Positions 1-16,660 of a DNA stretch of 32,000 nt are shown here, piece by piece. Made by a program: the position numbers and the translations under genes. The DNA is from Alkanindiges illinoisensis DSM 15370 (lineage in GTDB: Bacteria; Pseudomonadota; Gammaproteobacteria; Pseudomonadales; Moraxellaceae). Where the stretch lies: the NCBI RefSeq assembly GCF_000619845.1, contig NZ_JHUX01000008.1, positions 60,001 through 92,000 on the forward strand. The letters run 5' to 3'. Position 1 is the stretch's first letter. Every line of letters starts with the position of its first letter. The notes under the pieces are model-generated. The model had not been told where the DNA came from. It did not search any database and was given only the letters and a program-made list of their open reading frames with translations.

Positions 1-444
1 TCTAACAGCGTAGCTTCAATGGCTGGTAAAGCACGTCGTGGTGTAACTAGTGAAGTTTCCCTGATTGAAAACGTTGATCTGACTATTGGTGCCAGTGCAC
101 TGAACATTCAACTGGGTAATCAGCCACAAGGCGCTATGATTGCTGCTAACGGTGTAATTGGTGGCGGTATCCGTATTGCTAACCTGACTGTTAACGACAA
201 TGTTGGTGGTGGTCAAGTTGGTATTCAGAACATGGCAATTACCAGTGCTGACAGCACTAACCTGACTGTTAATACACTGATTGGTGTAAACAACCAAGGT
301 CTGTCTATCAAATCAACTGGTGCTAACGACATCTACATGGGTTCCATCAAACTGGGTGATCTTTCTACTGCTGCTTCTTTAGGTTCTATCGAAATTCAGG
401 GTATGGAAATGGTTAACTCTGAAATTCTGGTATCTGGCCACTAA
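1..444 (+). CDS. filA: FilA-like fibre/pilus subunit, paralog 1; only the 3' part is in the window (5' end lies upstream)
   Basis: Frame 1 is open from nt 1, with no stop before the ATG at 19. The 141-aa track ORF aligns only to the C-terminal half of the next ORF (NIQLGNQPQGAMIA vs NVQLGNAPQGAMIA; C-termini ILVSGH vs MTISGH). There is no signal peptide at the Met at 19, so the gene is truncated by the window edge. Codon choice (ctg, ggt, aac, atc) looks like a highly expressed gene. Confidence 0.8.
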   Translation, partial: SNSVASMAGKARRGVTSEVSLIENVDLTIGASALNIQLGNQPQGAMIAANGVIGGGIRIANLTVNDNVGGGQVGIQNMAITSADSTNLTVNTLIGVNNQGLSIKSTGANDIYMGSIKLGDLSTAASLGSIEIQGMEMVNSEILVSGH

Positions 445-454
445 TAGGCTGTGG

Positions 455-484
455 GCCGACAATAGTAATATTGTCGGCTTTCTT
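455..484 (+). terminator. Rho-independent terminator/attenuator after paralog 1
   Basis: Perfect 10-bp stem GCCGACAATA (455-464) / TATTGTCGGC (469-478) with a GTAA loop, followed by TTTCTT. It starts 11 nt after the stop codon. Confidence 0.75.
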
Positions 485-511
485 GACTTGATTTTTGGTA
501 ATCAGTCTTAT
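483..511 (+). promoter_or_regulatory. Candidate sigma70 promoter for paralog 2
   Basis: TTGACT (483-488), a 17-bp spacer, then TCTTAT (506-511), about 25 nt upstream of the ATG at 537. The -10 element is weak (4/6). Confidence 0.3.
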
Positions 512-536
512 CTTCAAGGGAACAGGGAACAATACG

Positions 537-1388
537 ATGAAAACTTTAACAAAATTAGCTTTGGTTTCTGCTATGGCAATCAGCAGCAGTGCTTTTGCTC
601 TGGAATCGCTTGATGATTCAACGCTGAGCCAAACCACAGGTCAGGATGGTATTACAATCAAGTTGGATGCACAGGCTGATGGTACAATCTTTGGTGCCGA
701 TAATATTGTTGTTCATGATAACGATGGTGTAGGTACAGCAAGCTACGGTATTGCTACCCCTTCTGCCGGTGCGATTGTACTGGGTAAAAAGTCTGATGGT
801 ACAGGTACTGGTTTTAGCATTAAAGGTGCAACAGGTGATGCGGTAGTCATTAAAGTTGATGCCGATGCGAATGGTACTTCACCTGTATTAAACGTAAATA
901 TTGGGTTGCCAACAGCTTTAACTGTAAATACTGGTGATATCTATGTAGCCAAATCTAATGGCGTTGGAGCTACTGGTGCACAGTTTGCTAATGAAGCTAA
1001 AATTTTAAATAACATCACTGTAAGTCTTGGTGGTGCACAGATGAATGTTCAGTTAGGTAATGCGCCACAAGGTGCGATGATTGCCTTAGGTGGTAGTGTA
1101 GCAGGTGGTGTAAATATCGCTAACCTGGAGCTGCAAGATAACTCAACTGGTGCTGGTGGCGTAATTCACCTTGGCAACATCAATATCCGTGATAAAGGTG
1201 CTGCTAACTTAAGTTTAGGAACTAATATCAAAGCTACTACTGATGGTTTATCAATTGTTCGTACAGCTGGTGATGTTGACGTTCGACTAACTGCAGTTCA
1301 GTTGGGTACAGCAAATGCTGCCCATCAAGTTGGTGATATCGCAATTTTGGGTATGAAAGTGCCTAACATGACTATTAGTGGCCATTAA
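537..1388 (+). CDS. filA: FilA-like secreted fibre/pilus subunit, paralog 2
   Basis: I chose the internal ATG at 537 (AGGGA Shine-Dalgarno upstream). It gives a canonical Sec signal peptide, MKTLTKLALVSAMAISSSAFA|LE. Motifs shared with the other paralogs: TGQDGIT, DADANG, NTGDIYVA, QLGNAPQG and the C-terminal ISGH. The family name is recalled from Acinetobacter annotation ('putative pilus system protein FilA'). Confidence 0.85.
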   Translation: MKTLTKLALVSAMAISSSAFALESLDDSTLSQTTGQDGITIKLDAQADGTIFGADNIVVHDNDGVGTASYGIATPSAGAIVLGKKSDGTGTGFSIKGATGDAVVIKVDADANGTSPVLNVNIGLPTALTVNTGDIYVAKSNGVGATGAQFANEAKILNNITVSLGGAQMNVQLGNAPQGAMIALGGSVAGGVNIANLELQDNSTGAGGVIHLGNINIRDKGAANLSLGTNIKATTDGLSIVRTAGDVDVRLTAVQLGTANAAHQVGDIAILGMKVPNMTISGH

Positions 1389-1415
1389 TTAATTTAGCTG
1401 CTTAAATATGTAAAG

Positions 1416-1445
1416 CAAAGCGGCACAAGATGCCGCTTTGTCATC
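1416..1445 (+). terminator. Hairpin terminator/attenuator after paralog 2
   Basis: 10-bp stem CAAAGCGGCA (1416-1425) / TGCCGCTTTG (1431-1440) with a CAAGA loop. The downstream T-tract is weak (TCATCA), so termination may be partial. Confidence 0.55.
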
Positions 1446-1452
1446 AGGAGTG

Positions 1453-1458
1453 TATAAT
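1453..1458 (+). promoter_or_regulatory. Candidate -10 element for paralog 3
   Basis: Perfect TATAAT hexamer with TG immediately upstream, 60 nt before the ATG at 1518. There is no good -35 element; that position lies inside the preceding hairpin. Confidence 0.3.
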
Positions 1459-1517
1459 AATTATAAATCTGCAGCAGCAGATGGCACTGGATGCATGAAA
1501 CTTAAAGGAAGAGTAGT

Positions 1518-2348
1518 ATGTTTAAACTTCGAAAACTGATCATCGCATCCATGCTGTTTAGTGGATTAACTTCTGCTTTTCCAGTTTTTGCAATGCAAGC
1601 TCTTAATGATGAAACTCTGAGTGATACCACGGGGCAGGATGGTATTACTTTAACTCTGGATAACTCAGGAACTTCTGGTAAAGTTATCTGGACGGATAAT
1701 GACGGCTGGTCAGGCTTGTCTCAAACTGCAGGTGCTGTAATCTTTGGTGATGGTACACCTTCAACAAATTTTCGTATTAGTGGTGGAAAGACCGTAATTA
1801 CCATGGATGCTGATGGTAATGGATCTAATGCTTTTCTTAATATCAATATTGATATGCCAGATAATTTAAAAATAAATACGGGCAATATCTATGTAGCTGG
1901 TAAAGACAGTACAGGCGTTATTAATCAGAAAAAAATTCTTGGTGATACAGAAATTGAATTAAGTGGTTTAAATCTTAATGCTCAGCTTGGGAATGCCCCT
2001 CAAGGTAATTTGCTTAATTTCTCTGGTGTTATTAATAACGGCATTCGCTTAAATAATTTTACTCTTATTGATGGATCAACCTCTTCAACTGGCAATGATT
2101 ATGGAATTGCAATTGATCAAATTATTCTTCGTGATCATGGAGCTAACGACTTAACATTGGATAATATTGGCATAAGTGTTACGTCAAATGGCTTGCTTAT
2201 AGATACAAGTCGTACTAATAACAAAGTTGATTTCTTGCTAAGTAATGTCAAGGTAGGTGGGTTATCAAGTAGTGCTCCTACGATTGGTGGAATCAGTGTG
2301 CTTGGTGTGAATCTCAACAGTTTATCTATGACAATCAGTGGACATTAA
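1518..2348 (+). CDS. filA: FilA-like secreted subunit, paralog 3
   Basis: AGGAAG Shine-Dalgarno before the ATG. Signal peptide MFKLRKLIIASMLFSGLTSAFPVFA|MQ. Same motifs as paralog 2 (TGQDGIT, DADGNG, NTGNIYVA, QLGNAPQG, MTISGH), but the rest is divergent and N/I/L-rich. Confidence 0.85.
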   Translation: MFKLRKLIIASMLFSGLTSAFPVFAMQALNDETLSDTTGQDGITLTLDNSGTSGKVIWTDNDGWSGLSQTAGAVIFGDGTPSTNFRISGGKTVITMDADGNGSNAFLNINIDMPDNLKINTGNIYVAGKDSTGVINQKKILGDTEIELSGLNLNAQLGNAPQGNLLNFSGVINNGIRLNNFTLIDGSTSSTGNDYGIAIDQIILRDHGANDLTLDNIGISVTSNGLLIDTSRTNNKVDFLLSNVKVGGLSSSAPTIGGISVLGVNLNSLSMTISGH

Positions 2349-2442
2349 ACTTCGCTTAAAATTTGTGCACCATAATCAACTCTGTTAAAATATGCTTCGT
2401 CTACGCTGTGAAGCGTCCAGTGAGAGATCAGGAAGGTCGACT

Positions 2443-3432
2443 ATGCAAAAATATAATCTTGCTTTAGCAGTTGGTCTATTGTGTTCCACGGCTAATGCTT
2501 GGGCGCTTCAGGCAATGGATGATAATGCCTTGGCTGAGCAAACTGGACAGGATGGTATTACTGTTGCACTTCAGTATGCTGACTCTACGATTAGCTTTAG
2601 TGAAGCAATAATTACAGACACCAATGGTATGACTAATGCCAGCAATAAGGCTTCGCTCGTTATTGCACCAGCTACTTATAGTTCTACGCAAGGTATTCGG
2701 TTATTCAGAAATAACAGTTCTACTACTTTGGCCACTGCTCCCATAAAAATTCAAATGGATGCTGATGCTAATACTGCCAGTCCAGTATTTAATGCTGCAA
2801 TATCCTTACCTTCTGATCTTGAACGTATACGAATTAATCCTTTATCTGTTTATTTGGCGACAGGTGATACCAGCATTTTTACAGGGCGTAAGGTGGATGG
2901 CTCAACAACCAATACTTTTCGTACAGGGGTAACTGAGTTACTTAGAGTGAACGGAGAAGGAATAGATACGGTATTTAAATCTGGTGACCCATTAACTATT
3001 AATGTCCAGTTGGGGAATACTCCGCAGGGACACATGTTTATGTTTACCGGTGGCAGTATTTTATGTGTTGGCAATAATGCTTCCTGCATGAGTACTACAG
3101 GTGCAGACGGTGCTAATCCAATTGAACTTATTTCTTCTAATAGTTCGAGTAACTCAAGCTTAAAACTCAATTTTAAACTTTCAGCAAGTAACCAGACTAC
3201 AGGTTTTCGTCTTAATGGATTCTATGGCGATATTAATGCTGACGGTTTGACCTTTGGAAAATCTGGTGCTACGGATAAAGTTGATTTAGTGCTTAGCAAT
3301 ATTACAGCAGGCTGTAGCTCAGGTTGCCAGGATGTAAATACATTCAGTAACTTAAAAAATGGTTCTATGGGTAATTTTGGTGTAATAGGCGCTAGCGTTA
3401 CGAATCTGAAAGTAAATGTTAGGGGGCTATAG
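2443..3432 (+). CDS. Divergent FilA-like secreted protein, paralog 4 (possible minor or tip subunit)
   Basis: The internal ATG at 2443 follows AGGAAGG and gives the signal peptide MQKYNLALAVGLLCSTANAWA|LQ. It keeps TGQDGIT, DADAN and QLGNTPQG but is longer, contains two Cys pairs (CVGNNASC, AGCSSGC) and ends VNVRGL instead of ISGH. Confidence 0.8.
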   Translation: MQKYNLALAVGLLCSTANAWALQAMDDNALAEQTGQDGITVALQYADSTISFSEAIITDTNGMTNASNKASLVIAPATYSSTQGIRLFRNNSSTTLATAPIKIQMDADANTASPVFNAAISLPSDLERIRINPLSVYLATGDTSIFTGRKVDGSTTNTFRTGVTELLRVNGEGIDTVFKSGDPLTINVQLGNTPQGHMFMFTGGSILCVGNNASCMSTTGADGANPIELISSNSSSNSSLKLNFKLSASNQTTGFRLNGFYGDINADGLTFGKSGATDKVDLVLSNITAGCSSGCQDVNTFSNLKNGSMGNFGVIGASVTNLKVNVRGL

Positions 3433-3609
3433 TTTTAGATTTATTTAGTTCGCTAAAGTGCAAATTAAATAAAAAAATTTAGTGTATTTGTGACAAAAAC
3501 ACGGTATCTTGTAAATTACATGGATGACGACTTATTAACCTAAAGTCGTATTCTTAACAGGACATGGTAACCCAGTGAACGGGTTATCCAAAATTAGAAA
3601 AAGTGCGCT

Positions 3610-4446
3610 ATGTTTATTATCACACTAGGGTCAGCTCTGATTTATCATTTTGCGACCGAAGCTCTGCAGGTAGCAGACAAGCCAGCGGGTTCTGTCTATT
3701 ACTCAGAGGTTGCAGATTCCCGTTACTATTCTTATGGTAAATATCACCAGAATCCGGTACAGGTTAAACCTGCTGTCGAGCAGCAGTTTCGCGGCATTGT
3801 AAAGCAAGCCTATGATTATAGTTGTGGTTCTGCTGCGCTAACGACACTACTAAATGGTTATATTGGTGAAAAGCTGACTGAGCAACAGACCATGAATGGT
3901 TTAATGCGCTATGGTGAATATGACCGTATTGTAGAGCGCCGTAGCTTTTCTCTGTTGGATATGAAGCGCTTTGTAACAGCACTTGGCTACAACAGTGGTG
4001 GTTTTAAAGGACAATTTTCTGATTTAACCAAACTGGATAAGCCAGCCATTGTGCCTATTGCTTATGCAGGATTTAAACACTTTGTTGTTTTTAAAACTTA
4101 TCGTGATGGTCGAGTATTTATTGCCGATCCCGCACTAGGTAACTTAAGTTTTAGTGCTGAGCATTTTCAGGAAATCTGGGATAACAATACCTTATTTATT
4201 ATTGACCCTCCTGTTGGGCGTGAACTTCCTGGTTTACTGGGGCTACAGGAAAGTGACATGCGCATTGTAGAAGACAGTGTGATTGATCGGTTTGCGTTTG
4301 TAGATGTGCGTTATCCAACACTAATGATGGAAAAGAATGCTGATCGCGCTGCAACCATGCGCCGTGTACTGGATGATGACCCAAAATCTGATAATTATCA
4401 GAAGCCGATTGACACCTATATGCGTCTTTATTACAAACGCAAGTAG
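3610..4446 (+). CDS. filB: Standalone C39-family cysteine peptidase with an N-terminal hydrophobic export/anchor segment (FilB-like)
   Basis: C39 catalytic arrangement: Gln66, Cys72 in YDYSCGSAAL (codon 3823-3825), His157 in FKHFVVF and Asp173 in IADPA. There is no ABC-transporter domain. An in-frame TAG at 3595-3597 fixes the 5' limit. Confidence 0.85.
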   Translation: MFIITLGSALIYHFATEALQVADKPAGSVYYSEVADSRYYSYGKYHQNPVQVKPAVEQQFRGIVKQAYDYSCGSAALTTLLNGYIGEKLTEQQTMNGLMRYGEYDRIVERRSFSLLDMKRFVTALGYNSGGFKGQFSDLTKLDKPAIVPIAYAGFKHFVVFKTYRDGRVFIADPALGNLSFSAEHFQEIWDNNTLFIIDPPVGRELPGLLGLQESDMRIVEDSVIDRFAFVDVRYPTLMMEKNADRAATMRRVLDDDPKSDNYQKPIDTYMRLYYKRK

Positions 4447-4517
4447 CACTGGCTGATAACTAATAGATTTGGGTATTTGTGTAATTTAAGATAACTGTTT
4501 CAAGGTAGATTATAGTC

Positions 4518-5798
4518 ATGCAGAAACAATGGATGAATCGGTCAATATTGTCTTTAAGTATTGGTCTGGCAATGATTGGTGTAAATGTATATGCGGCAGA
4601 GGATAATGCCACCGATGCCAATAGCCAGATCACTGCTGCACCGTCAGCTATAGAGGGGACAACCGATCCTGTCGCTGCCGAAAGCCGTGCTCAGGTAGAA
4701 GCACCATTAACCAATGACAATAATCCAAATACTGACAGTGCAGTTGTCAACACAATTAATGAACGTAGTGATAGTACTGCTGCGAGTACTGGTTCAACGC
4801 CAGCGCCTGATACAACCACAACAAATGCTGCGTCAGAAACGCCTTCTATGGTGCCTGAGAATAAAGCGGCTGGTGTCCTACAACAAAAAGCTGATGACGC
4901 CTCAACCAAAAGTAACCTTGAAGAAGTTTTTACCCGTTCTGAGCAGCAATACTCGCTTTCTAAACGTGGATCATATTCCGCTACTTATGATATTGACTAT
5001 ACTTACTATCGTGATAGTCGCCTAGATCTGGCATTAAGCGACAGCAGCTCTACGCTGACCCGTTTACGGATTGAAGAGGACGCACAACATACTATTACTA
5101 ATACCTTTACTTTCCAGTATGGTTTGCTAGATAACTTAACCTTAACAGCTTCATTACCTTTGGTTGCCAAGAGTGATAACTTAAAGGATGAAACTACTGC
5201 CGGCTTGGGCGATCTTAGTTTTGGTGCACGCTGGGAACCATTTCCGTTAAAAGCAGGTCGTTTACCTTTAATCCTGTTTGGTAGCTTGTCGACCAAAACA
5301 GGAGATAGTCCTTACGAAATTGATGCAACTCGTGGGTTATCAACCGGTAAGGGATATTACTCAATCGGCGGTGGTGCCAGTACCCGTAAATTTATTGATC
5401 CAGTCGTCCTATTTGCTTCAGGCTCAGTAAGCTATGGTTTAAAGGAATCAGGATTAGATCAGCGTAGAGGAGAGCGTACGCTAGATGAATTTGATCCAGG
5501 TATTAGCGGCGGGATTGCATTTGGTTTTGCCTATTCGTTTAACTACGATGTGTCCTTAACCATGTCCTATCAGCAAAGTTTTTCTACCAATAGTGAATTC
5601 CGTTTTACCAGTGGCGAAGTTTCAACGCCTGCTGACCAAACCAGTGCGTCTTTAGGCTTTTCCTTGGGTGTACGTGTTTCACCAAAAACGATTGTCAATG
5701 GTTCAGTGGGTTTTGGTCTGACAGAAGATGCGCCAGACGTTTCTCTGGGATTATCGTTCCCATTGGATTTCCTGGGTTTTGGTCGTGAAACCCGCTGA
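4518..5798 (+). CDS. filC: Putative outer-membrane beta-barrel protein with a low-complexity N-terminal region (FilC-like)
   Basis: Signal peptide MQKQWMNRSILSLSIGLAMIGVNVYA|AE, followed by about 120 aa rich in T/S/A/N/P. The C-terminal ~280 aa are G/S/Y/F-rich with alternating hydrophobic residues, typical of OM barrels. The family assignment comes from locus position and is recalled, not computed. Confidence 0.7.
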   Translation: MQKQWMNRSILSLSIGLAMIGVNVYAAEDNATDANSQITAAPSAIEGTTDPVAAESRAQVEAPLTNDNNPNTDSAVVNTINERSDSTAASTGSTPAPDTTTTNAASETPSMVPENKAAGVLQQKADDASTKSNLEEVFTRSEQQYSLSKRGSYSATYDIDYTYYRDSRLDLALSDSSSTLTRLRIEEDAQHTITNTFTFQYGLLDNLTLTASLPLVAKSDNLKDETTAGLGDLSFGARWEPFPLKAGRLPLILFGSLSTKTGDSPYEIDATRGLSTGKGYYSIGGGASTRKFIDPVVLFASGSVSYGLKESGLDQRRGERTLDEFDPGISGGIAFGFAYSFNYDVSLTMSYQQSFSTNSEFRFTSGEVSTPADQTSASLGFSLGVRVSPKTIVNGSVGFGLTEDAPDVSLGLSFPLDFLGFGRETR

Positions 5799-5809
5799 GG
5801 CATGCCGGT

Positions 5810-7477
5810 ATGAAGTTGAATTTGCGTTTACAGCCTTTAGCCTATGCCATCATACTTTCCAGTATGCCGGTAATAAGCCATGCCCAGCTAGGACAGAACT
5901 TATCCATTGATATCCGTGCATTGTCTATGGGAAATGCGGTGACAGCAGACCCACCAGGGATTAGTGCAATTCACTTTAACCCGGCAGGCCTGACTAAAAT
6001 TGAAGGTCTGCAAACTGATGTTCAGGGTTTACTGGTTGACTTTAATATCCGGCGTGAATTTGAAGCACCAGCGGGTTACAACGTTTTTGGCTACTCTGAC
6101 GATCCAATCATCTGTAATGATGTAGCAACTGTTGGCCAAAAAATTTGTAGTGACTTCAAGGATTATGCTGTTAGTAAGGTTGACCATCCCAGTCTTTATG
6201 TCCCTGTATTAAAAAAGATGGTGAACTGGCCTCAAGGCTTACCACTGGCTGCCCCGCTGGCAGGTGCTGCCTATAAGCCACCGGGCTCAAAAATAACTTA
6301 CGCTTCCGCATTGTATGCACCATTGGTGGCTGGTTTTGGCTCGGCTGATGGCGATCCTGGCAATTTCATGGGTCAACAGGTTGCCATTGAGCGTATTACT
6401 TATTTATCGCCTTCTGCTGCCTATAAAGTCAGTGATAATTTATCATTAGGTGCCTCTATTGGCATGTCATATCAGGCGATTGGCCTAAAAACTGACCTTC
6501 GTTTTCCTAATGAACTAATCGGCGTATTACGCCTAATTGATGAAGATGTCTGTGGTCCATTTCAAGAAAATGGCAACATTGTTAGTGATTTATTGCTATT
6601 TGGCTTGTGTAATGCAGAAGAAGGTGTTGGGCCATTCAAAAGCTTTGGTTCAATGGAAGTTGCTCTGGAGCAAACACTATCACCTTCCTACAATCTAGGC
6701 TTACTGTGGGAACCAAGTGACGATTTTGGCTTTGGTATGGTTTATCAAAGCAATAGCAAAATGAAGCTTAAGGGTGACTATGCAATTGAAAATGGTCGCG
6801 GTGGACAGGAGTTAATTCGTGCTCTGAGTTCATCGGTAACCGGTGCAATTCTACAGGCAATCTTGGGCTTTCCATCGTATGTTCCACCGAGTGAGACAGG
6901 TAAAGTCTCTATGGATCTGGAATATCCTGCGCATTTTCAGGCAGGGGTAAAATATAAAGTACTGCCTGATTTACAGTTTAATTTTGATATTGGCTGGACA
7001 GATTATGCAGCGTGGGACTACTTTAGATTCAAGTTTGACCGCCAGGTTTCTGCCTTACAGATTGCAAAATTGCTATCTAACGACGTAACGGCATCTAGCT
7101 TAAACTTGCCTCTCAAATTCCGCAGTCCATGGAGCTGGGGTGTTGGCATGGAGTATAGTGCTACAGATCGTCTCAAACTGCGTTTGGGATATGAACCTCG
7201 TAAAAGTGCAATTCCTGATGACCGCCGTAATACCCTTGTGCCAATCAATAATGCACAAATGTTTGGTGCAGGCATGGGCTATCGGTTTGATCCAGATACT
7301 GATATTGATTTAACGGTAATGCACCTGCGTAGCCGCGATAATATTCCTGCTAATACCAGTGGACTTGCTAACCAGACCGGAGTTAATAACCTGTTATTAA
7401 ATCCCTATGCTGGATTAAATGTAAAAACAAATACGAAAGTCACCATTCTTGGTATAGCCTATCGTACTAAATGGTAA
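5810..7477 (+). CDS. filD: FadL/OmpP1/TodX-family outer-membrane channel protein (FilD-like)
   Basis: Signal peptide ending VISHA|QL. An N-terminal hatch-like segment, GNAVTADPPGISAIHFNPAGL, carries the NPA motif typical of the FadL family. The C-terminal strand ILGIAYRTKW ends in an aromatic residue. Confidence 0.8.
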   Translation: MKLNLRLQPLAYAIILSSMPVISHAQLGQNLSIDIRALSMGNAVTADPPGISAIHFNPAGLTKIEGLQTDVQGLLVDFNIRREFEAPAGYNVFGYSDDPIICNDVATVGQKICSDFKDYAVSKVDHPSLYVPVLKKMVNWPQGLPLAAPLAGAAYKPPGSKITYASALYAPLVAGFGSADGDPGNFMGQQVAIERITYLSPSAAYKVSDNLSLGASIGMSYQAIGLKTDLRFPNELIGVLRLIDEDVCGPFQENGNIVSDLLLFGLCNAEEGVGPFKSFGSMEVALEQTLSPSYNLGLLWEPSDDFGFGMVYQSNSKMKLKGDYAIENGRGGQELIRALSSSVTGAILQAILGFPSYVPPSETGKVSMDLEYPAHFQAGVKYKVLPDLQFNFDIGWTDYAAWDYFRFKFDRQVSALQIAKLLSNDVTASSLNLPLKFRSPWSWGVGMEYSATDRLKLRLGYEPRKSAIPDDRRNTLVPINNAQMFGAGMGYRFDPDTDIDLTVMHLRSRDNIPANTSGLANQTGVNNLLLNPYAGLNVKTNTKVTILGIAYRTKW

Positions 7478-7489
7478 TTGGTATTTGAA

Positions 7490-8689
7490 ATGGCACGAGT
7501 AACCTGGAAACCTGTCGCCGCTGGTACACTGGCTTTATGCTGCCTTAGTGTGGTTAATGCCGCGACAGAGCGTTCCGGTTTTTATACAATTGTAGGTCCG
7601 GATGGGCAAATGATTGTAATAGACCGTAATGCTTCTAATAAAAATGACAAGAATTCGGAAGTTACAACGAATGCAAAAATTAAAAAAAAGTCGCCTTTAA
7701 CCTCAAGATGGTCTTTATTTAGCAGGCATAAGCCAGCAAAGGTAACAGAATCAGTAGCACCAATTACCTCAAATCCTCGCGCAGTTGTAGGACTGGTACC
7801 ACAAAACAATGCCTTGCCTGCTCAGCCATCAACGGTTCAGGCGCAAGTTCAGCCTATTGATACCAAGAAGCAGACTAGTCAGGCTACACCTCAGACTCAG
7901 GTTTCTTCTGGATTACCAAAAGAAACTAATCATCAGAAGGTTGTTAATGAGCCTAATTCACAAACTGTTCCTGAAGTCTTAGTAACCAAGCCTAAAACTA
8001 CTTCTCAGGTGTCTGATGCTGAGCCTGTCACTGTGATTGATGGGGAGCAATACATTGATAGTGAGTACCTAGAACAACGCGAATTTAATCTGGAAGGCAA
8101 AAAAAGATTTTATAATTTGCCTGATGGTATAGGCGGCCATGAGGTATTGGAGCGCGAAAAAGGGGTCGATATGACCGTATTTCGCAAGCAAAAAATTGAG
8201 AAGCCTCAAGTAGTTGACTTTTCTAAAAATTATCAGCGTATTCCCCAGGTACAAATTGTTGCGCTAACTGGTGCCACTTGTTTTAATGAAAAACAGCTTA
8301 AAGGTGCCAAGCTATTTAAACAGGATGAATATCTGGATTTCTGGCCCAGACCAGGATTTGAGCCAAAATTTGATTTTGTAGTTGCAAAACTTGCACAACC
8401 TATCAATGATATTCAGGTAACCTCTTATGCTAATAATATGAGTAATCCGAAGTTTTATTGGCCGCTACCTATTTTTCTGGATGAAAAAGGTTGTGTCATG
8501 GAAGGGGTAAATGCTTTTTATCAGGCAACTATAGCGCCTACTGTCACAACACATCAGGCAATTCAGGGATATTTGCATATACCGCAAAATACCCGCTATA
8601 TTTTGTTTACTCCTCTGGAAGCTGCAGCGGATTTATCAGAAACACAACTAACGAACAAAGGACAGGTTCGTTTGACGCCAATTCGTTAG
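7490..8689 (+). CDS. filE: Secreted protein with a P/Q/T-rich linker and a C-terminal globular domain (FilE-like)
   Basis: The ATG at 7490 gives the signal peptide MARVTWKPVAAGTLALCCLSVVNA|AT. The track start at 7478 is a TTG that directly abuts the filD stop codon. I recognise no catalytic motif. The name follows the conserved gene order. Confidence 0.7.
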   Translation: MARVTWKPVAAGTLALCCLSVVNAATERSGFYTIVGPDGQMIVIDRNASNKNDKNSEVTTNAKIKKKSPLTSRWSLFSRHKPAKVTESVAPITSNPRAVVGLVPQNNALPAQPSTVQAQVQPIDTKKQTSQATPQTQVSSGLPKETNHQKVVNEPNSQTVPEVLVTKPKTTSQVSDAEPVTVIDGEQYIDSEYLEQREFNLEGKKRFYNLPDGIGGHEVLEREKGVDMTVFRKQKIEKPQVVDFSKNYQRIPQVQIVALTGATCFNEKQLKGAKLFKQDEYLDFWPRPGFEPKFDFVVAKLAQPINDIQVTSYANNMSNPKFYWPLPIFLDEKGCVMEGVNAFYQATIAPTVTTHQAIQGYLHIPQNTRYILFTPLEAAADLSETQLTNKGQVRLTPIR

Positions 8690-8717
8690 CCTTATTTATT
8701 TAATTGGATATACTGTA

Positions 8718-10772
8718 ATGCGAAATCTTTATCAGGCTTCAAAACTTCCTTTTGCATTAACTAGCCTTTGCTTGATGCTAAGTGCCTGTGGTGGGGGCAG
8801 TAATACCATCAATGAAGATCCTACAGCAGGCGGGGGAAGCAATACTGTTGTTGAGTGTGCAAGCTCTGACACAACGTGCGTTGACCTTGTTTTTGATGAT
8901 ACGCCTGTGGTTAATTTGAACTATGAATGCGGCAAATATCATAGTGTGACCAGTAATACTGGTGTAGCTCGCTGTCCTATAGATTCCAATGTTACATTTT
9001 ATTTAAAAGCAGCTGAAGGGACGCGCAAAATTGTTTTTGGAACACTAGCTGTTAAGCCAGTGCGTAATACAATTTCATCTGAGGTGCAGGATACTTCTTT
9101 AATTCGCATTACCACTAAGGATTTGGCTGAAAGTGTTACTAATTCGACCATTAGCAGTTTAGATGAGAGTGCAGCTGCAAAAACAGCAACTAATATGAGT
9201 CAGTTGTTGCAATCAATCGCTCGTAGTAACCGTGGAGACTCTACTAAGGCTTATACAAGTAGTAATGAGTTTTATATTGATACAGCACCTGTGAACCGGG
9301 TTTATATTGATACAGCTGTCAAAGCTGATATTGAGAAAATGACTGAAGATGTGGCAGCTAAAGATTTTCAGGACACGACATTTATTAGCAAAACCAAGCC
9401 TTGGCTAGAAGCGCAGAAAATAACACTGATTTCTACTGCTGAAGCAAAACATCGCTTGGAAAAAGTCATTTTGGCCAAGAATTCAGGCGTCTTCTTTGCA
9501 ACACCAACACTGGATGCCGGCCTTTTTCAAACCACTGGAGTGGATTTAAAGCTTGGCGTATCAGGTAATGATGGCAGCAATACAAGCGCTACAGTTGCCA
9601 TGTTTGCTTTAACGGATCGTACAGGTGACAATACAGGTTATGGCTTACAGTGGATTGCACCGACTTCTACAGACTTAACCCGGTATGCTATTTATTTACA
9701 AAACAAATATTCAAAAATGCGTTTAGCTGATGATTCCAATGTATTCAATCCCTACACCAATCGCTTTAACAATTTCAGCTTTAATATAGGTCCTAAAGCC
9801 TATACTGCTGATAACTCGGACGCAAATAAATATAATGGCAACACATTTCGGTTCGTAAATGGTAAGTTAATCCGTGATCTTGCAGTACTAGGCTCAGCAG
9901 ATGTTTACAAGCTTTATAATGGCAGTGCAATTAAAGATAGTAGTGAGCTTGGTACATGGGAGCAAAAGAATACCATTGGCGGAACTAATTTTAGTGGTAC
10001 AGCGACAGTATTCAAGCGTGGTGCAGTAAATACTTATCTGGATCCAGCGGTATGGCGTGTTAAAGAACTGGTTTCACTAGGTCAGACCTATCAAATTCCA
10101 TTGTATGCAACGCTTACTATTAATTATCGGGATGAATATACCAAAGCTTGTGCCACCTGTGCAAAATCGGTCACGCTGCCCATTGCAATATTAGCCAATG
10201 GTGACATTGTTACTGATGGTAATAATGAAACCAACTATACTAATTCTGAAGCAGTATGTGGACAGCCTAAAAAAGACGCAAATGGAGACCCAATCAAAGA
10301 TAATGATGGCAATCCGGTTTATTTCAAACAAAAAGTCATTGGAACAATTCGAGCGGCTTATCCAAGTACAGATGGTTCCCAATTTTATCTAAGCCCCAGT
10401 ATTATTTTGGCAGGTGAACAGTTTGGTGACCTAGATGGTACGTTGATTGGTATTGGTGAGCGCGTTAAGATCAATCTGGCAGGTCTCCGTAATGTGGCTG
10501 CAGGTCAGCGTGGTTCAATTAATGCGACCAGTGCCGAATTGGGTGACAGTGATACCAATGCTGCAATCTGGGCGAATACCTATAACAGTTATACCCGTCT
10601 GCGTGTTGAGTATGCAGCATCCAATGATACAGCGACAACGAAAGATGATAAGCTAGATCCAGTTACTGCTGCTGAAAAACTTGCAGCAAACCAAGACTAT
10701 GGTACGCTACAAATCAATAGTTCAGCACAGGTAAATAATTCGCCAAGCTGTACAGTTCAACAAAGACAATAA
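8718..10772 (+). CDS. filF: Large lipoprotein (FilF-like)
   Basis: Lipobox LMLSA|C followed by GGGSN. The N-terminal module is Cys-rich (four further Cys within ~50 aa). The 684-aa size and the last position in the cluster match my recollection of Acinetobacter FilF. Confidence 0.75.
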   Translation: MRNLYQASKLPFALTSLCLMLSACGGGSNTINEDPTAGGGSNTVVECASSDTTCVDLVFDDTPVVNLNYECGKYHSVTSNTGVARCPIDSNVTFYLKAAEGTRKIVFGTLAVKPVRNTISSEVQDTSLIRITTKDLAESVTNSTISSLDESAAAKTATNMSQLLQSIARSNRGDSTKAYTSSNEFYIDTAPVNRVYIDTAVKADIEKMTEDVAAKDFQDTTFISKTKPWLEAQKITLISTAEAKHRLEKVILAKNSGVFFATPTLDAGLFQTTGVDLKLGVSGNDGSNTSATVAMFALTDRTGDNTGYGLQWIAPTSTDLTRYAIYLQNKYSKMRLADDSNVFNPYTNRFNNFSFNIGPKAYTADNSDANKYNGNTFRFVNGKLIRDLAVLGSADVYKLYNGSAIKDSSELGTWEQKNTIGGTNFSGTATVFKRGAVNTYLDPAVWRVKELVSLGQTYQIPLYATLTINYRDEYTKACATCAKSVTLPIAILANGDIVTDGNNETNYTNSEAVCGQPKKDANGDPIKDNDGNPVYFKQKVIGTIRAAYPSTDGSQFYLSPSIILAGEQFGDLDGTLIGIGERVKINLAGLRNVAAGQRGSINATSAELGDSDTNAAIWANTYNSYTRLRVEYAASNDTATTKDDKLDPVTAAEKLAANQDYGTLQINSSAQVNNSPSCTVQQRQ

Positions 10773-10780
10773 AATTATTA

Positions 10781-10807
10781 AAAAAGGGGCAAAAGCCCCT
10801 TTTTTTA
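10781..10807. terminator. Bidirectional Rho-independent terminator between the convergent filF and Nudix genes
   Basis: AAAAA-AGGGGC-AAAA-GCCCCT-TTTTTT. The stem is 10785-10790 / 10795-10800, with an A-run on one side and a T-run on the other. Confidence 0.85.
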
Positions 10808-10904: not shown

Positions 10905-11435
10905 TCAGCTGCTAATTGTTTCCAGATGGAGGGTAAACTGGCCGTGCTGCCGGTCATGGAAATAGTGCTTAAGCGTGCGCTCGATACTGGGAAAAGCCAG
11001 TTCATTCCAGGGAATTTCATCTTCACCAAACAGGCCGCATTCCAGGCTTTCTGTCCCGGCGCCATACTGTCCATCCTGTAAACTGCCTTTAAATAGAACA
11101 TAAATCTGCCCAATACGGGGGATATTGTACATGCAGTATAGCTGCTCAATATTCACAACACCTTCTGCTTCTTCCCAGGTTTCACGTGCTGCGCCTTCTT
11201 CCATGGTCTCGTGCAGCTCCATAAACCCTGCTGGTAAGGTCCATAAACCATAGCGGGGTTCAATGGCACGTCTGCACAACAGCACTTTGTCCTGATGAAT
11301 GACCAATGCCCCACAAATGACCTTGGGATTTTCATAATGAATATGACCACAACTGGAACATACCAGACGCTCGCGTTGGTCACCTTCTGGAATAACAATC
11401 TGGCCTTGCTGGCCGCATTTTAGGCAAAAAGACAT
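10905..11435 (-). CDS. NUDIX hydrolase with an N-terminal zinc-ribbon
   Basis: Two CxxC pairs (CLKC...CSSC). Nudix box GFMELHETMEEGAARETWEEAEG, which fits GX5EX7REUXEEXGU. Confidence 0.85.
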   Translation of the reverse strand: MSFCLKCGQQGQIVIPEGDQRERLVCSSCGHIHYENPKVICGALVIHQDKVLLCRRAIEPRYGLWTLPAGFMELHETMEEGAARETWEEAEGVVNIEQLYCMYNIPRIGQIYVLFKGSLQDGQYGAGTESLECGLFGEDEIPWNELAFPSIERTLKHYFHDRQHGQFTLHLETISS

Positions 11436-11530
11436 GAATGGCAGCAGTAAAATCTTGATGAGTTGTTGAGCATAACTGAAAACTTTGTTTGTGGCATCTG
11501 GTTATCGCCAGTTTAACGCGGTAAGCTACG

Positions 11531-12157
11531 ATGATGCAGCAAAATATGATAACTCCGCGATTTAAAGCTGACTCACTGATTGATCAGTTAAGGCAGGGCA
11601 TTGGCTTTGCCCCTTCACCACGCCGTGCCGATGCTGCTGTGCTGCTGGCAATTACCCGTGAAGAGCAACCCAGAGTGTTACTCACCCTTCGTGCATCCCA
11701 CATGCGGCATCATGCAGGTGAGGTGTCTTTTCCAGGCGGACGCAGGGAAGCAGGAGACACCAGTAATATTGTGGTGGCGCTGCGTGAGGCTTTTGAAGAA
11801 ACAGGTTTAAATCCATTTCAGGTAGAGCTTTTGGGGGAATTACCCAGTCAGCGGGCCAAAAGTGGCATGTGGGTTAAACCTATTGTTGGCCTGATTCCAC
11901 CGGATGTGATCCTTATTCCACAGCCAGATGAAATCGAGCGGATTTTCTATGTGGAACTCATGCATATTATTAAGGCACAGCCGCTGCCATATCCAGTACA
12001 GTTCAACCGGCAGCAATATTATATGCCCAGTTTCCAGTTGGATAATGAAATTATCTGGGGTTTGACTGCACGTATTCTGGTGTCTTTGTTCAGGCGTGGG
12101 TTAAGGCACTCTATCGAATGGCCGTTTTTAATGAACCAGCCGCAAGACATTATTTAA
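11531..12157 (+). CDS. nudL: CoA pyrophosphatase (Nudix family, NudL/YeaB-like)
   Basis: LLTLRASHMRHHAGEVSFPGG followed by the Nudix box REAFEETGL. This combination is characteristic of CoA pyrophosphatases. Confidence 0.8.
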   Translation: MMQQNMITPRFKADSLIDQLRQGIGFAPSPRRADAAVLLAITREEQPRVLLTLRASHMRHHAGEVSFPGGRREAGDTSNIVVALREAFEETGLNPFQVELLGELPSQRAKSGMWVKPIVGLIPPDVILIPQPDEIERIFYVELMHIIKAQPLPYPVQFNRQQYYMPSFQLDNEIIWGLTARILVSLFRRGLRHSIEWPFLMNQPQDII

Positions 12158-12218
12158 AACTTTAAATCTTGTGGCTTAAGTCTGGTAATTTAAACCTTAT
12201 AAAACAGGAAGGATGTTT

Positions 12219-12752
12219 ATGCTGTATTGTCTGGATGACCATTGCCCCACTAGTCTAATAAGCCCTTGGGATGGCTGGGTGGCTGACAATGCAACAGTCA
12301 TTGGTCAGGTGCAACTGGGTCAGCAGGTCAGTATCTGGTTTGGTGCAGTTATTCGTGCCGATAACAGCCCGATTATTCTGGGCAATTACAGTAATGTACA
12401 GGAAAACGCAGTGCTGCATACGGATGCGGGTATTGCACTGACAATTGGTGAATATGTAACGATTGGACATCAGGCCATGCTGCATGGCTGTACTATTGGT
12501 GACAATACACTCATTGGCATTAACGCTGTGGTATTGAACAATGCAGTGATTGGCAAGAACTGTATTATTGGTGCCAATGCCCTTATTCCTGAAGGTAAAG
12601 TTATTCCAGACAATTCCATTGTGATGGGATCACCGGGAAAGGTAGTGAAAGAAGCCAGTGAAATGGTGGCACAAATGAACCGCATGAGTGCGCTGCATTA
12701 TGCCAGCCATTACCAGAAATTTAAAAATGGTTTGCGGCCCCATCAGTTATAA
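12219..12752 (+). CDS. Gamma-carbonic-anhydrase-family / hexapeptide-repeat protein (YrdA/PaaY-like)
   Basis: Left-handed beta-helix hexapeptide repeats and the family motifs SIWFGAVIRAD, NVQENAVLH and IGHQAMLHGC. The second ATG (12219) is better spaced from the AGGAAGG Shine-Dalgarno than the ATG at 12213. Confidence 0.85.
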   Translation: MLYCLDDHCPTSLISPWDGWVADNATVIGQVQLGQQVSIWFGAVIRADNSPIILGNYSNVQENAVLHTDAGIALTIGEYVTIGHQAMLHGCTIGDNTLIGINAVVLNNAVIGKNCIIGANALIPEGKVIPDNSIVMGSPGKVVKEASEMVAQMNRMSALHYASHYQKFKNGLRPHQL

Positions 12753-12892
12753 GTGTTAAAGCACATTGCGCGTCTAGGCAATTGTGCAGCCAGACGATTA
12801 CTGGGTAAAGATACGGATTTTGACGTCATTATTTTGATATTATAGTATTTATTAAATGATCTCTTTGCCGTGTTTGACGTAATGAGGTGTGT

Positions 12893-13375
12893 ATGGGTAG
12901 TCAGGTAAAAGCGGTAGCAAAACGCAAGCTGATTGCTGCGCTGGTTAGCGATATGGCACAAACCATCCGGGATCACCATTCCCTACAGCAAGTGATGGAT
13001 TTGCTGGAAAAACAGGTAGAGCTGGCTCAAAAGCAGCCATTTACCAATTTGAGCCGTACGCAAGCCAAGGAGTTGCTGGAGCAATTGCAATCCAAGGTGA
13101 TGCCACAATTATGCACCAGCCTATGCGCGCAAAGCCCGTGGTTTGGCAGTACAGAAAAACGTCTGACTGGGCTGGGTGCTGCATCGTTATATTTGCCTGT
13201 GAATGCCAGTAGTCTGGCCCAGAAGCATCAGCCTTTTACCGTACAGCAGCAATGGCAACGGGTAGGCCAGCAAACGGAGTTGCTCAGGGAACAACTCCAG
13301 CGCAAAATAGATCGTTTAACGGGAGTGCGGGCTAAGACTGATGAATGGGAAACTGTTTTCCCGGAAGACGAGTAA
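12893..13375 (+). CDS. Hypothetical protein, Q/L-rich and probably helical
   Basis: ORF with GAGGTG upstream of the ATG at 12893. No recognisable motif. Codon usage is similar to the neighbouring genes. Confidence 0.55.
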   Translation: MGSQVKAVAKRKLIAALVSDMAQTIRDHHSLQQVMDLLEKQVELAQKQPFTNLSRTQAKELLEQLQSKVMPQLCTSLCAQSPWFGSTEKRLTGLGAASLYLPVNASSLAQKHQPFTVQQQWQRVGQQTELLREQLQRKIDRLTGVRAKTDEWETVFPEDE

Positions 13376-13463
13376 ATCTGACCCCACACTAAGTATTTTT
13401 ATCAGTACTTATTGCGTTATGAGGCCTTTCGAGGTAAATCTTAATTGTTTGACATTATTTCCT

Positions 13464-13886
13464 TTAAGTAAAAATCAGCAGGACACACCAGATTAGTGCT
13501 GCCACCAGCAAGGTTTTGGCAATCAGGCGGATCAGTTCACTGGTCGCAGTGCTGGAACCATGATCATCAAGCGCAAAAATTTGTGCATACAGCTCACCCG
13601 CTCGTGGCCCAAAGCAAAAACCAACCAGCGCGCCTAGTCCAGTAAAAACATAGGCCAAAAACCAGATAAACTGACCATCTCCGTCCGGCTGAGTAAAAGT
13701 GCGGATCAGAGAAGTAATAAAGTCAAACAGGCCACCCAGCAATAATCCCATCACACCTGAAAAAAATGCAAACTGTAACCGGTTAACCCAGCCTTTGGTG
13801 GGTACTTTTTCCGGCTTTCTGGAAAGTCGTGCACGCTGACGTTCACGAAGCGCCTGAAACGCCCGGGTACGTGATAAAGAACGCAT
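13464..13886 (-). CDS. Hypothetical small inner-membrane protein
   Basis: Arg-rich N-terminus followed by three hydrophobic segments (FFSGVMGLLLGGLF, FIWFLAYVFTGLGALVGF, LLVAALIWCVLLIF). Confidence 0.6.
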   Translation of the reverse strand: MRSLSRTRAFQALRERQRARLSRKPEKVPTKGWVNRLQFAFFSGVMGLLLGGLFDFITSLIRTFTQPDGDGQFIWFLAYVFTGLGALVGFCFGPRAGELYAQIFALDDHGSSTATSELIRLIAKTLLVAALIWCVLLIFT

Positions 13887-14150
13887 GATTTCACCCCAAA
13901 CTATGTTCTTAATGGTATCTCACTAATTTATAGTAATTTGTTTTCTTATCTGGTGAATTGCTGTAACTATCCTGTTTGGTTTTTTTGCCAGGATTTAAAG
14001 GTATTCAAACAAAAACAACTTAAGTAATAAATGGTCAACAGTTTTTGTTAATATAGCCCGCTTTAACGATTGGCTTGCAGGCGTTGAGCAGGCGTTAAAA
14101 TCAAATGACATATCAAGAAACAATACACGGGCTAGGCTTGGGGGTACAGG

Positions 14151-14846
14151 ATGCTTTTGGCACTGGAAACAGCAAATGAGTGGTGTTCTGTGGCGTTGTT
14201 TGATGGGCAAACTGTGGTGGCTCATCGTGAGGACAACCGTAGCCGTGAGCAAACCCGCCTGATTTTACCCATGATTGATGCAGTATTGGCCGAGCAGGGA
14301 ATCCATGTGAATGCACTGGATGCCATTGCGTTTAGTCGTGGGCCGGGATCATTTAGTGGTGTGCGAATTAATGCGGCCGTGACGCAGGCTTTGGCATGGG
14401 CGCATGATCTACCGGTTGTGCCGGTATCGACCTTGCAGGCACTGGCGCAGGCTGCATATCGACAGTATCAGTTAACGCAGGTATTGGCAGTGCTGGATGC
14501 CCGGATGAATGAGGTATATGCCGCGGCTTACCAGCTGGATCAGCAGCAACTGATGCAGCCGCTAACTGATGAATCTGGCATTGAACAACTGGTTGCCTAT
14601 GATCAGGTTAGATTGCCTGATCAAACACAGTGTTATGCACTGGCCGGAAATGGTGGTCCTCTATTGACCCATGCCAGTGAACTGGCTACCTATTCAGACG
14701 TACATGCCAATAGTACAGATATTGCCCGGCTGGGCTACGCAGCATTTAAGGCCGGTAAAGCGGTGAGTGCAGATCAGGCGTTGCCGGTTTACTTGCGTGA
14801 CAATGCCTGGAAAAAAATTGCCGAGCAGGGTTCACCAAAAAATTAA
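14151..14846 (+). CDS. tsaB: tRNA N6-threonylcarbamoyladenosine modification protein TsaB (YeaZ)
   Basis: N-terminus LLALETANEWCSVAL and the motif FSRGPGSFSGVRI, both typical of TsaB. Confidence 0.85.
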   Translation: MLLALETANEWCSVALFDGQTVVAHREDNRSREQTRLILPMIDAVLAEQGIHVNALDAIAFSRGPGSFSGVRINAAVTQALAWAHDLPVVPVSTLQALAQAAYRQYQLTQVLAVLDARMNEVYAAAYQLDQQQLMQPLTDESGIEQLVAYDQVRLPDQTQCYALAGNGGPLLTHASELATYSDVHANSTDIARLGYAAFKAGKAVSADQALPVYLRDNAWKKIAEQGSPKN

Positions 14847-14900
14847 GCTTTTTTAATCATGTCAATGTAGTGTGTTGCTTTTATCACATCGGGAGTGCGT

Positions 14901-16522: not shown

Positions 16523-16660
16523 TAAGCAGGACAGCGTGGTGTAATCTTGGAACTATCGCTGTTTTGCACCTCAAGCTGCACATAAAAATCAGGGTAATTG
16601 TGCCATTAACCCTTTTGCTATCGGTACATTCAGTCTTAGGCATTTAAAACGGAAGCTTCA

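Follow-up and report, generated by a model that had tools for sequence, protein, structure and literature searches.

The fil locus of Alkanindiges illinoisensis

The DNA considered here is a stretch of 32,000 nucleotides (nt), hereafter the window, that covers positions 60,001 to 92,000 of contig NZ_JHUX01000008.1 of Alkanindiges illinoisensis DSM 15370. Its left end carries a cluster of genes that corresponds to filABCDEF, the 'putative pilus system' of Acinetobacter. In the list of open reading frames (ORFs), the cluster appears as a + strand run of nine ORFs that spans positions 1..10772, the first of them cut at the window edge. Analysis of this cluster suggests that two of its products are related to the export proteins of the Pseudomonas Fap system and that Fil probably builds surface fibres by a similar, ATP-independent route. 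The features of the locus are the following.

1..444, + strand: FilA paralogue, first copy, C-terminal 147 aa, ending in ...VSGH (NCBIfam pilus_FilA 1.9e-41, profile positions 136-279)
537..1388, + strand: FilA, 283 aa (NCBIfam FilA 272.8 bits; Pfam DUF6160)
1518..2348, + strand: FilA paralogue, 276 aa (NCBIfam FilA 3.5e-61)
2443..3432, + strand: divergent FilA paralogue of the FilA3 type, 329 aa (NCBIfam FilA 3.5e-28)
3610..4446, + strand: FilB, C39 cysteine peptidase (NCBIfam FilB 512.3 bits; Pfam Peptidase_C39 2.6e-16)
4518..5798, + strand: FilC, outer-membrane barrel of the FapF family (NCBIfam FilC 630.7 bits; Pfam Phenol_MetA_deg)
5810..7477, + strand: FilD, outer-membrane barrel of the FadL/OmpP1 family, 555 aa (Toluene_X 2.6e-60; NCBIfam FilD 1052.8 bits)
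7478/7490..8689, + strand: FilE, secreted protein (Pfam FilE_C 4.8e-64; NCBIfam FilE 386 bits)
8718..10772, + strand: FilF, 684-aa lipoprotein (NCBIfam FilF 445.1 bits; lipobox LSAC)
10780..10805, no strand: G+C palindromic hairpin between A and T runs, predicted bidirectional intrinsic terminator (terminator scan and sequence reading)

The nine genes are closely packed. With the likeliest starts, the gaps between them measure 92, 129, 94, 177, 71, 11, 0 (12 with the ATG of FilE) and 28 nt, in agreement with the 0-180 nt given by the first-pass annotation, which was made from the sequence alone. The FilE ORF opens at TTG 7478 and its likely start is ATG 7490. The export signals reported by the same annotation were found again: classical signal peptides open the three complete subunit genes, FilC, FilD and FilE, the N-terminus of FilB is a hydrophobic stretch without charge that may act as an anchor, and FilF has its lipobox LSAC at residues 21-24 (nt 8778-8789). 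The hairpin is perfect (AAAAAAGGGGC-AAAA-GCCCCTTTTTT) and lies eight bases past the filF stop; this predicted terminator closes the fil operon.

The identity of the locus, which had been proposed from gene order and sizes, was confirmed by hidden Markov model (HMM) searches. All six NCBIfam Fil models matched, each on the expected gene and in the order A-B-C-D-E-F. FilB, FilC, FilD, FilE, FilF and one FilA copy (537-1388) scored above the curated cut-offs (in bits: FilA 220, FilB 475, FilC 630, FilD 970, FilE 100, FilF 390), and the other three FilA paralogues scored below the FilA cut-off yet matched no other NCBIfam model. The protein classes proposed at first pass were also recovered. The four subunits are true paralogues (24-39% pairwise identity), the stand-alone peptidase has a C39 domain (Pfam 2.6e-16), one of the two barrels is FadL-like (Toluene_X 2.6e-60) and the other belongs with Phenol_MetA_deg and FapF-like proteins, the secreted P/Q/T-rich protein is FilE with its V/S/T/K/P/Q-rich linker and the 684-aa lipoprotein is FilF. 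To judge from these matches, the locus is the filABCDEF orthologue of an Alkanindiges-like Moraxellaceae genome. The Acinetobacter system (NCBIfam NF050077-NF050081, NF033645; Fil fimbriae of strain Tol 5; A. baumannii A1S_0690-0695) has the same six families in identical order. FilB, FilC and FilD of the Acinetobacter type are 60-70% identical to those of the window, and Acinetobacter FilF is 25-30% identical to its counterpart. To judge by FilC matches, many Acinetobacter genomes have the fil locus, the A. baumannii group included, and an A. baumannii record contains a 66%-identical FilB.

The nearest relatives of the fil products are found in Moraxellaceae, namely in Alkanindiges and Acinetobacter. 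A contig search with a single FilE query returned two loci only, both from Alkanindiges, and a metagenome search with a FilB alignment returned 12 close loci. Two Alkanindiges loci (L001, and L002 from A. hydrocarboniclasticus) and a distant metagenome contig (L003) share the one-strand order A(n)-B-C-D-E-F. Between two and four filA copies are present: four in the window and in L002, two in L001 and in L003. Identities to the window products, in the order L001, L002, L003, are as follows.

FilA copies: 26-42%, 43-57%, 27-36%
FilB: 96%, 96%, 60%
FilC: 84%, 92%, 62%
FilD: 98%, 98%, 68%
FilE: 81%, 67%, 30%
FilF: 73%, 84%, 29%

The products thus fall into two groups. Against the Alkanindiges loci, FilB, FilC and FilD share 84-98% identity, compared with 26-57% for FilA, 67-81% for FilE and 73-84% for FilF; against the distant contig the figures are 60-68% for FilB, FilC and FilD versus 27-36% for FilA, FilE and FilF. 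FilD is the most conserved component. The highest value for FilA is that of the copy at 1..444, which has 57% identity with the first of the FilA copies in A. hydrocarboniclasticus (L002 2149-3021), and the FilA of L003 is just 36% identical to that of the window. Judged by these identities, this split in rates is the pattern expected of a conserved machinery (B, C, D) and of exposed or diversifying parts (A, E, F), with FilF apparently evolving fast. An exposed FilF also fits the report that this protein is immunogenic and protects mice (PMC11834437).

Upstream of fil, the relatives of the cluster have a chorismate-binding (pabB-like) gene that is transcribed divergently and is common to the Alkanindiges loci and L003. 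Because this gene bounds the cluster there, the window probably lacks merely the first half of the first filA. The first-pass annotation had described the cluster as AT-richer than the genes to its right, a difference that becomes sharper at third codon positions: the G+C content at these positions (GC3) is 0.24-0.36 in the nine fil genes and 0.44-0.56 in the next eleven genes (10905-20942). Unlike the fil loci of Acinetobacter, the copy of the window sits in a higher-GC Alkanindiges-like genome, where it has kept its low GC3. Such a composition suggests recent horizontal transfer; the pabB-like flank common to the relatives counts otherwise, and further low-GC3 genes at 21-24 kb indicate that the fil cluster is not alone in this property. 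The deficit could also reflect an old acquisition that was never ameliorated or a codon or amino-acid bias peculiar to exported proteins.

Kinship of FilB and FilC with the Fap export proteins

Fap of Pseudomonas (fapABCDEF; FapF structure 5O65) is, like Fil, an envelope-only and ATP-independent system with all its parts exported by Sec (PMC5557850). FapF forms a trimeric 12-stranded channel, the exit route of the unfolded subunits, and Fap has no ATPase. The peptidase FapD is located in the periplasm, and secretion of FapC through FapF requires the Cys of the FapD active site; the whole fap operon has also been reconstituted in E. coli (PMC5557850). Both Fap and Fil encode a C39 peptidase that is stand-alone and exported (FapD/FilB), an outer-membrane barrel that is homologous between the two (FapF/FilC) and, upstream of the peptidase gene, several secreted subunit paralogues. 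The differences lie in gene order, since filB adjoins filC whereas fapE separates their counterparts in fap, in the subunits, and in FilE, FilF and the FadL-like FilD, which have no counterpart in Fap.

FilB is an exported stand-alone C39 peptidase with a conserved C-terminal extension of ~80 aa. Its catalytic set (Q66, C72, H157, D173) is intact and invariant in four orthologues. Among PDB sequences, FilB matches the C39 domains of peptidase-containing ATP-binding cassette (ABC) transporters (PCATs) with E about 1e-4, and in NCBIfam it matches FapD at 2e-30 (105.7 bits; equivalog cut-off 330). The case of FilC is similar. NCBIfam FapF ("fibril amyloid transporter") is matched at 1e-16, and since the score of 60.7 bits lies below the equivalog cut-off of 700, FilC is to be considered a homologue of FapF and not an equivalog. 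Its C-terminal half matches the FapF structures 5o65, 5o67 and 5o68 of the PDB with E about 4e-9. Further, an hhalign comparison of a profile of 23 FilC sequences with a profile of six FapF-like proteins gave a probability of 99.8% and an E-value of 2.3e-28 over 272 columns, that is, over the whole barrel (FilC 141-420). The N-terminal region of FilC, an A/T/S/N/P-rich linker of ~110 aa (residues 27-140, 8 Pro), falls outside this alignment. The FilC homologue search listed orthologues only, with no FapF among them.

Fap-like loci for comparison were obtained by tblastn on plasmid and chromid records, and the operons of Cupriavidus, Polymorphobacter, Croceicoccus, Aeromonas, Indioceanicola and Photobacterium (L016, L017, L019, L021-L023) were compared. 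In the operons of Cupriavidus and Polymorphobacter, the C39 protein and the barrel match Fap models as well as Fil models. Taken by their sequences, the FilC barrel belongs to the FapF family and FilB is a FapD-like peptidase. The relationship does not extend to the remaining components: a phmmer search (E <= 1e-3) of FilA, FilE and FilF against all ORFs of the six Fap-like loci, putative subunit genes included, gave no match.

An important conclusion of these comparisons concerns the proposal made at first pass that the assembly would use parts unlike those of known pathways. This holds for the folds of FilA and FilF, which have no PDB match, and does not hold for FilB (FapD, 2e-30) and FilC (FapF, 2.3e-28). 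Homology to a known outer-membrane export device was the result named there as contrary to the proposal, and such homology was found in part, because FilB and FilC are related to FapD and FapF. The principle of an ATP-free assembly in periplasm and outer membrane is therefore not new; the cargo and the three accessory proteins are.

Two observations on related loci were made along the way. Some Fap-like proteins carry, right after the signal peptide, a near-canonical double-glycine motif (E-L/V-L-x3-RGG|IRLP[DG]G; KLDDVRGG; RLEESRGG). The genes in question are L017 8609-9292 (Polymorphobacter) and L019 6909-7625 (Croceicoccus), both FapE-like, and L016 7306-7887 and 8491-9771 (Cupriavidus). 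For the FapE-like proteins, this putative motif fits the published suspicion that FapE is the substrate of FapD. The second observation comes from plasmid p12SAAs470 of Acinetobacter sp. SAAs470 (NZ_CP127894.1; L018 4546-8600). It encodes small Sec-signal proteins that have a leader of the double-glycine type (...ELSRQEMKDTQGA) and a bacteriocin-like tail rich in Gly. Their neighbours are a stand-alone C39 peptidase with a signal peptide, which shares 31% identity with FilB, and an outer-membrane barrel of 264 aa whose similarity to FilC is remote (hhalign probability 50%, E 1.7e-4). This locus may represent a third flavour of export by Sec, a periplasmic C39 protein and a small barrel.

FilA paralogues and their post-signal motif

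The FilA copy at 537..1388 is likely a major subunit. A Sec signal peptide is followed by the invariant motif LESLDDSTLSQTTGQDG at nt 600-650, the motif NVQLGNAPQG occupies a central position (nt 1044-1073), and the protein ends in ISGH and has no Cys. The copy at 1518..2348 (39% identical to the former) is built alike, with a leader-like motif at nt 1593-1643, the C-terminus ISGH and no Cys. The FilA3-type copy at 2443..3432 has kept the N-terminal motif (nt 2506-2556), contains 5 Cys and ends in RGL rather than GH. The C-termini of the Gly-His type thus lie at 433-444, 1377-1388 and 2337-2348, versus 3421-3432 for R-G-L. In the window, L001, L002 and L003, a longer, Cys-containing copy of the FilA3 type without the C-terminal Gly-His adjoins filB, and this constant position makes it a candidate for a minor subunit (nucleator, anchor or tip).

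Pfam DUF6160 matches the N-terminus of every complete FilA; a DUF6160 protein outside Fil is reported from P. aeruginosa PAO1 (PMC11687729). Across 83 homologues, residues T34, G35, Q36 and G38 are invariant, Cys is absent from 77, and about 78 end in [IV]-x-G-H; the Gly-His could be a channel-recognition or subunit-docking element. Aromatic residues are few, and the proteins are rich in Gly, Asn, Thr and Ser. The AlphaFold2 (AF2) model of FilA, built on the 83 homologues, is all-beta, with ~20 strands, several of them 9-11 residues long, and long hairpins (predicted local distance difference test, pLDDT, 81.9). A Foldseek search of this model against the PDB and BFVD gave no match at E <= 0.001, the best template modelling (TM) score being ~0.2.

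The most conserved segment of FilA directly follows the predicted Sec site (A-x-A) and reads [LM]-[QE]-x-[LM]-D-D-x-x-L-S-x-[TA]-T-G-Q-[DE]-G-[IV]-T. Counted back from Q36, hydrophobic residues stand at -7, -12 and -15 and a Gly at -2, and we hypothesise that the segment resembles the double-glycine leader of C39 peptidases. The substrates of the PCAT bacteriocin transporters have the same hydrophobic spacing (-15/-12/-7) and the Gly at -2, and the C39 domains of these transporters have the fold and the Q/C/H/D residues of FilB. Unlike them, FilB is stand-alone and exported, with neither ABC transporter nor ATPase, and the leader-like segment of FilA, unlike the leaders of PCAT substrates, sits behind a Sec signal peptide and has Gln at -1. 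AF2 models the segment as a helix of low confidence (pLDDT 51-68), placed before the confident beta domain. The equivalent place in FapE-like proteins is occupied by "TDYELATMRGG|IRLPDG", "LSEEVLARQRGG|IRLPGG" and "RLEESRGG", and in small Fap-like subunits by "KLDDVRGG", "VSEDALQATAGREGIS" and "VSDAELGKVAGK", so that the post-signal pattern of the Fap-like substrates can be written E-L-x3-4-(R)GG or AG(R/K). On the strength of this pattern, the motif L-D-D-x-x-L-S-x-T-T-G-Q|D-G would, hypothetically, mark FilA as a client of FilB. It is also possible that FilB recognises FilA without cleaving it or that it cleaves another Fil protein.

FilD, FilE and FilF

FilD is a clear member of the FadL family. 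The Toluene_X match covers residues 36-554 (204.5 bits; gathering score 29.7), and the nearest solved relatives are PDB 3dwo (7.8e-11), TbuX, FadL and CymD. Compared with the FadL/TodX channels for hydrophobic substrates, FilD is of the same family, yet ~100 aa longer than FadL and encoded within a fibre operon. FilD also matches PorV, the FadL-like shuttle of type IX secretion, but weakly (36.3 bits; cut-off 90 bits), and no type IX secretion genes accompany FilD.

The signal peptide of FilE is followed by a short, conserved strand at the N-terminus (VGPDGQMIVID), a V/S/T/K/P/Q-rich linker of ~150 aa and the FilE_C domain, and the FilE sequence has no match in the PDB. The N-terminal element (nt 7562-7600), just past the signal peptide, resembles the mature start of FilA, 'TGQDGITIKLD', and the two proteins may share here an element for strand formation or recognition. 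The AF2 model of FilF has a pLDDT of 85.2 and a predicted TM score (pTM) of 0.84. Its comparison with the PDB gave no Foldseek match at E <= 0.001, and the sequence search against the PDB returned nothing meaningful.

A proposed route of fibre assembly

That the product of the fil genes is a fibre is based on the literature only. Edman degradation identified FilA in Acinetobacter sp. Tol 5, and the long curved nanofibres that cells of this strain carry when grown on triacylglycerol were taken, by deduction, for Fil fimbriae (PMC3498257). In pellicles of A. baumannii, FilF is up-regulated (PMC3203104; PMC7273844). Mucin induces filA (PMC5757984).

The chaperone-usher, type IV, curli and sortase pathways find no equivalent in the locus, as noted at first pass. 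No Walker A motif ([AG]xxxxGK[ST]) is present in the six frames of 1..10772, no LPXTG or prepilin motif was found in the fil products, and scans of these products with Pfam and NCBIfam detected no PapD chaperone, usher, secretin, CsgG, sortase or ATPase. Fil hence differs from chaperone-usher pili, whose PapD-like chaperone and ~800-aa usher are not matched, and from type IV pili and type II secretion, whose G|F(T/S)L(I/L)E leader, prepilin peptidase and assembly ATPase were not found. The CsgG channel and the CsgA/B repeats of curli (type VIII secretion) are likewise without Pfam or NCBIfam match in Fil, and neither the LPXTG motif nor the sortase of sortase-assembled pili was found.

Taking these results together, Fil probably makes non-covalent surface fibres by an ATP-independent, two-step export of the Fap type. 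The Fil products, which carry export signals, would cross the inner membrane by Sec. FilA would then stay unfolded in the periplasm, because its subunits are Cys-free, aromatic-poor and Gly/Asn/Thr/Ser-rich. FilB would engage or cleave its substrate, an activity that, by analogy with FapD, would be needed for export, and the post-signal motif of FilA is the candidate site. The FilC channel, with the function of FapF, would pass unfolded FilA outwards over the outer membrane. Outside the cell FilA would fold into its all-beta domain and polymerise, both together being the driving force, and the Cys-containing FilA3-type paralogue would be a minor nucleator or anchor subunit. FilD, FilE and FilF may serve as platform or anchor in the outer membrane and as exposed accessories; their exact roles are the least certain step of the route.

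Several findings weigh against this route. The part of FilB and FilC in FilA export is predicted from homology and analogy, and the homology to Fap is limited to them: no NCBIfam Fap match beyond FapD and FapF was obtained and no homologue of FapA or FapE was found. FilC appears to be without the N-terminal, periplasmic coiled coil by which FapF is regulated (crude heptad score 0.21, compared with 0.43-0.53 in four FapF-like proteins), and FilD, FilE and FilF, lacking a Fap counterpart, leave much of the mechanism without explanation. Each AF2 model is that of a monomer. As for the peptidase step, FapE alone appears to be processed in Pseudomonas Fap (PMC5557850). An HMM of the N-terminal motif of FilA recovered every FilA copy among 24 sequences and no Fap-like subunit, so the likeness of the leaders is a hypothesis drawn by eye, and hhalign of the FilA profile with the Fap-like subunits aligned only the post-signal motif, without significance (E 0.2-0.4). 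Finally, the -1 position of FilA is an invariant Gln and not Gly, Ala or Ser, and C39 peptidases are not known to cleave after Gln.

A bolder reading joins all these elements and is correspondingly more tentative; we hold it to be possible rather than probable. Fil would be a distinct class of Gram-negative surface fibre, whose subunits are folded, all-beta and non-amyloid and have a fold not seen before. Behind the Sec signal, a second leader, of the double-glycine type, would direct them to the exported C39 peptidase and to a channel of the FapF type, and assembly or anchoring would take place on a FadL-type barrel with lateral opening as platform, FilE and FilF being exposed adaptors.

Alternative explanations

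The first alternative is that Fil serves the capture and uptake of hydrophobic substrates and not primarily the making of fibres, FilD importing lipids or alkanes and secreted FilA binding or emulsifying them. Alkanindiges and Acinetobacter are hydrocarbon and lipid degraders, which counts for this explanation together with the membership of FilD in the FadL family. Tol 5 makes FilA on triacylglycerol (PMC3498257), but long fibres accompany that production. The sole Foldseek matches of FilA with a non-trivial probability (0.2-0.3) were to lipid-binding, TULIP-like Der p 7 and to carotenoid-binding proteins, and these were rejected as insignificant (TM <= 0.25, E >= 1). An uptake channel would need neither a C39 peptidase nor a FapF-type exporter, and several fast-evolving subunit paralogues plus a conserved divergent one make a pilin-like pattern. 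Uptake as the main function is therefore unlikely.

According to a second alternative, the locus is a divergent fap operon and FilA a true functional amyloid of the Fap kind, which would stack as a cross-beta fibril after export through FilC. The FapD and FapF homologues of the locus agree with this possibility, as does FilA itself, being Gly/Asn/Gln-rich (11-15% N+Q) and having an invariant motif, N-x-Q-L-G-N-x-P-Q-G, with the flavour of a Fap repeat. However, no internal repeats were found in FilA when one half was aligned against the other (z <= 1.2), a negative result that disfavours an amyloid-repeat architecture and sets FilA apart from the Fap subunits. The AF2 prediction is a confident globular all-beta domain with long hairpins, Foldseek shows no solenoid, and FilA, FilE and FilF are unlike any ORF of the six Fap-like loci. 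A cryo-EM (electron cryo-microscopy) map of the FapC fibril at 3.2 A was published in 2025 (PMC12392863). The FilA profile gave nothing at E <= 10 against PDB sequences, among which the 2025 FapC fibril model was not confirmed. Fap and curli fibrils need formic acid to dissociate. FilA of Tol 5 was monomeric on sodium dodecyl sulphate-polyacrylamide gel electrophoresis (PMC3498257), which would be unusual for such fibrils. An amyloid nature of FilA thus seems very improbable.

The least likely explanation is that of the first-pass annotation, an assembly principle related to no known pathway, in which no component has a homologue among known export devices. The matches indeed include no usher, chaperone, secretin, ATPase, CsgG or sortase, FilA and FilF have folds without PDB match and FilE is without PDB sequence match. 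Two of the six families contradict this explanation, FilB and FilC being homologous to FapD and to FapF, an experimentally characterised outer-membrane secretion channel.

Other genes of the window

Downstream of the fil operon, amid biotin-synthesis and housekeeping genes, a 470-aa protein with a Peptidase_C13 (legumain/gingipain-like) domain (3.2e-30) is encoded at 18342-19754. A low-GC3 island at 21044-24034 contains thioredoxin-like, double-rhodanese and DUF3592 proteins and one gene without family. It splits a frmA-like class III alcohol dehydrogenase gene (19836-20942) from an esterase/fghA-like gene (24357-25220); frmA-like and fghA-like genes often adjoin. At 25461-27675, a DUF898 membrane protein adjoins an M48 peptidase, a recurrent pair.

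Significance

Fil is already a named and annotated family. No mechanistic or structural study of it was found in the literature searched, consistent with the statement made at first pass that its assembly had not been worked out, and neither was a paper that connects Fil with Fap; the kinship of both systems appears to be undescribed. Fil is a fibre pathway yet to be characterised, present in a priority pathogen genus, and FilF is under pursuit as a vaccine antigen. FilA and FilF offer two confidently predicted folds without PDB match, and the link with Fap gives an orphan 'putative pilus system' a concrete, testable route of ATP-free assembly. If this route is true, the FapF/C39 export module would not be confined to amyloids, and the repertoire of ATP-independent outer-membrane secretion would be wider. 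In the bolder and more tentative reading given above, the combination of Sec, a periplasmic C39 protein and a small FapF-like barrel would be a general two-step module of outer-membrane export for amyloids (Fap), fimbriae (Fil) and Sec-dependent bacteriocin-like peptides (p12SAAs470, L018).

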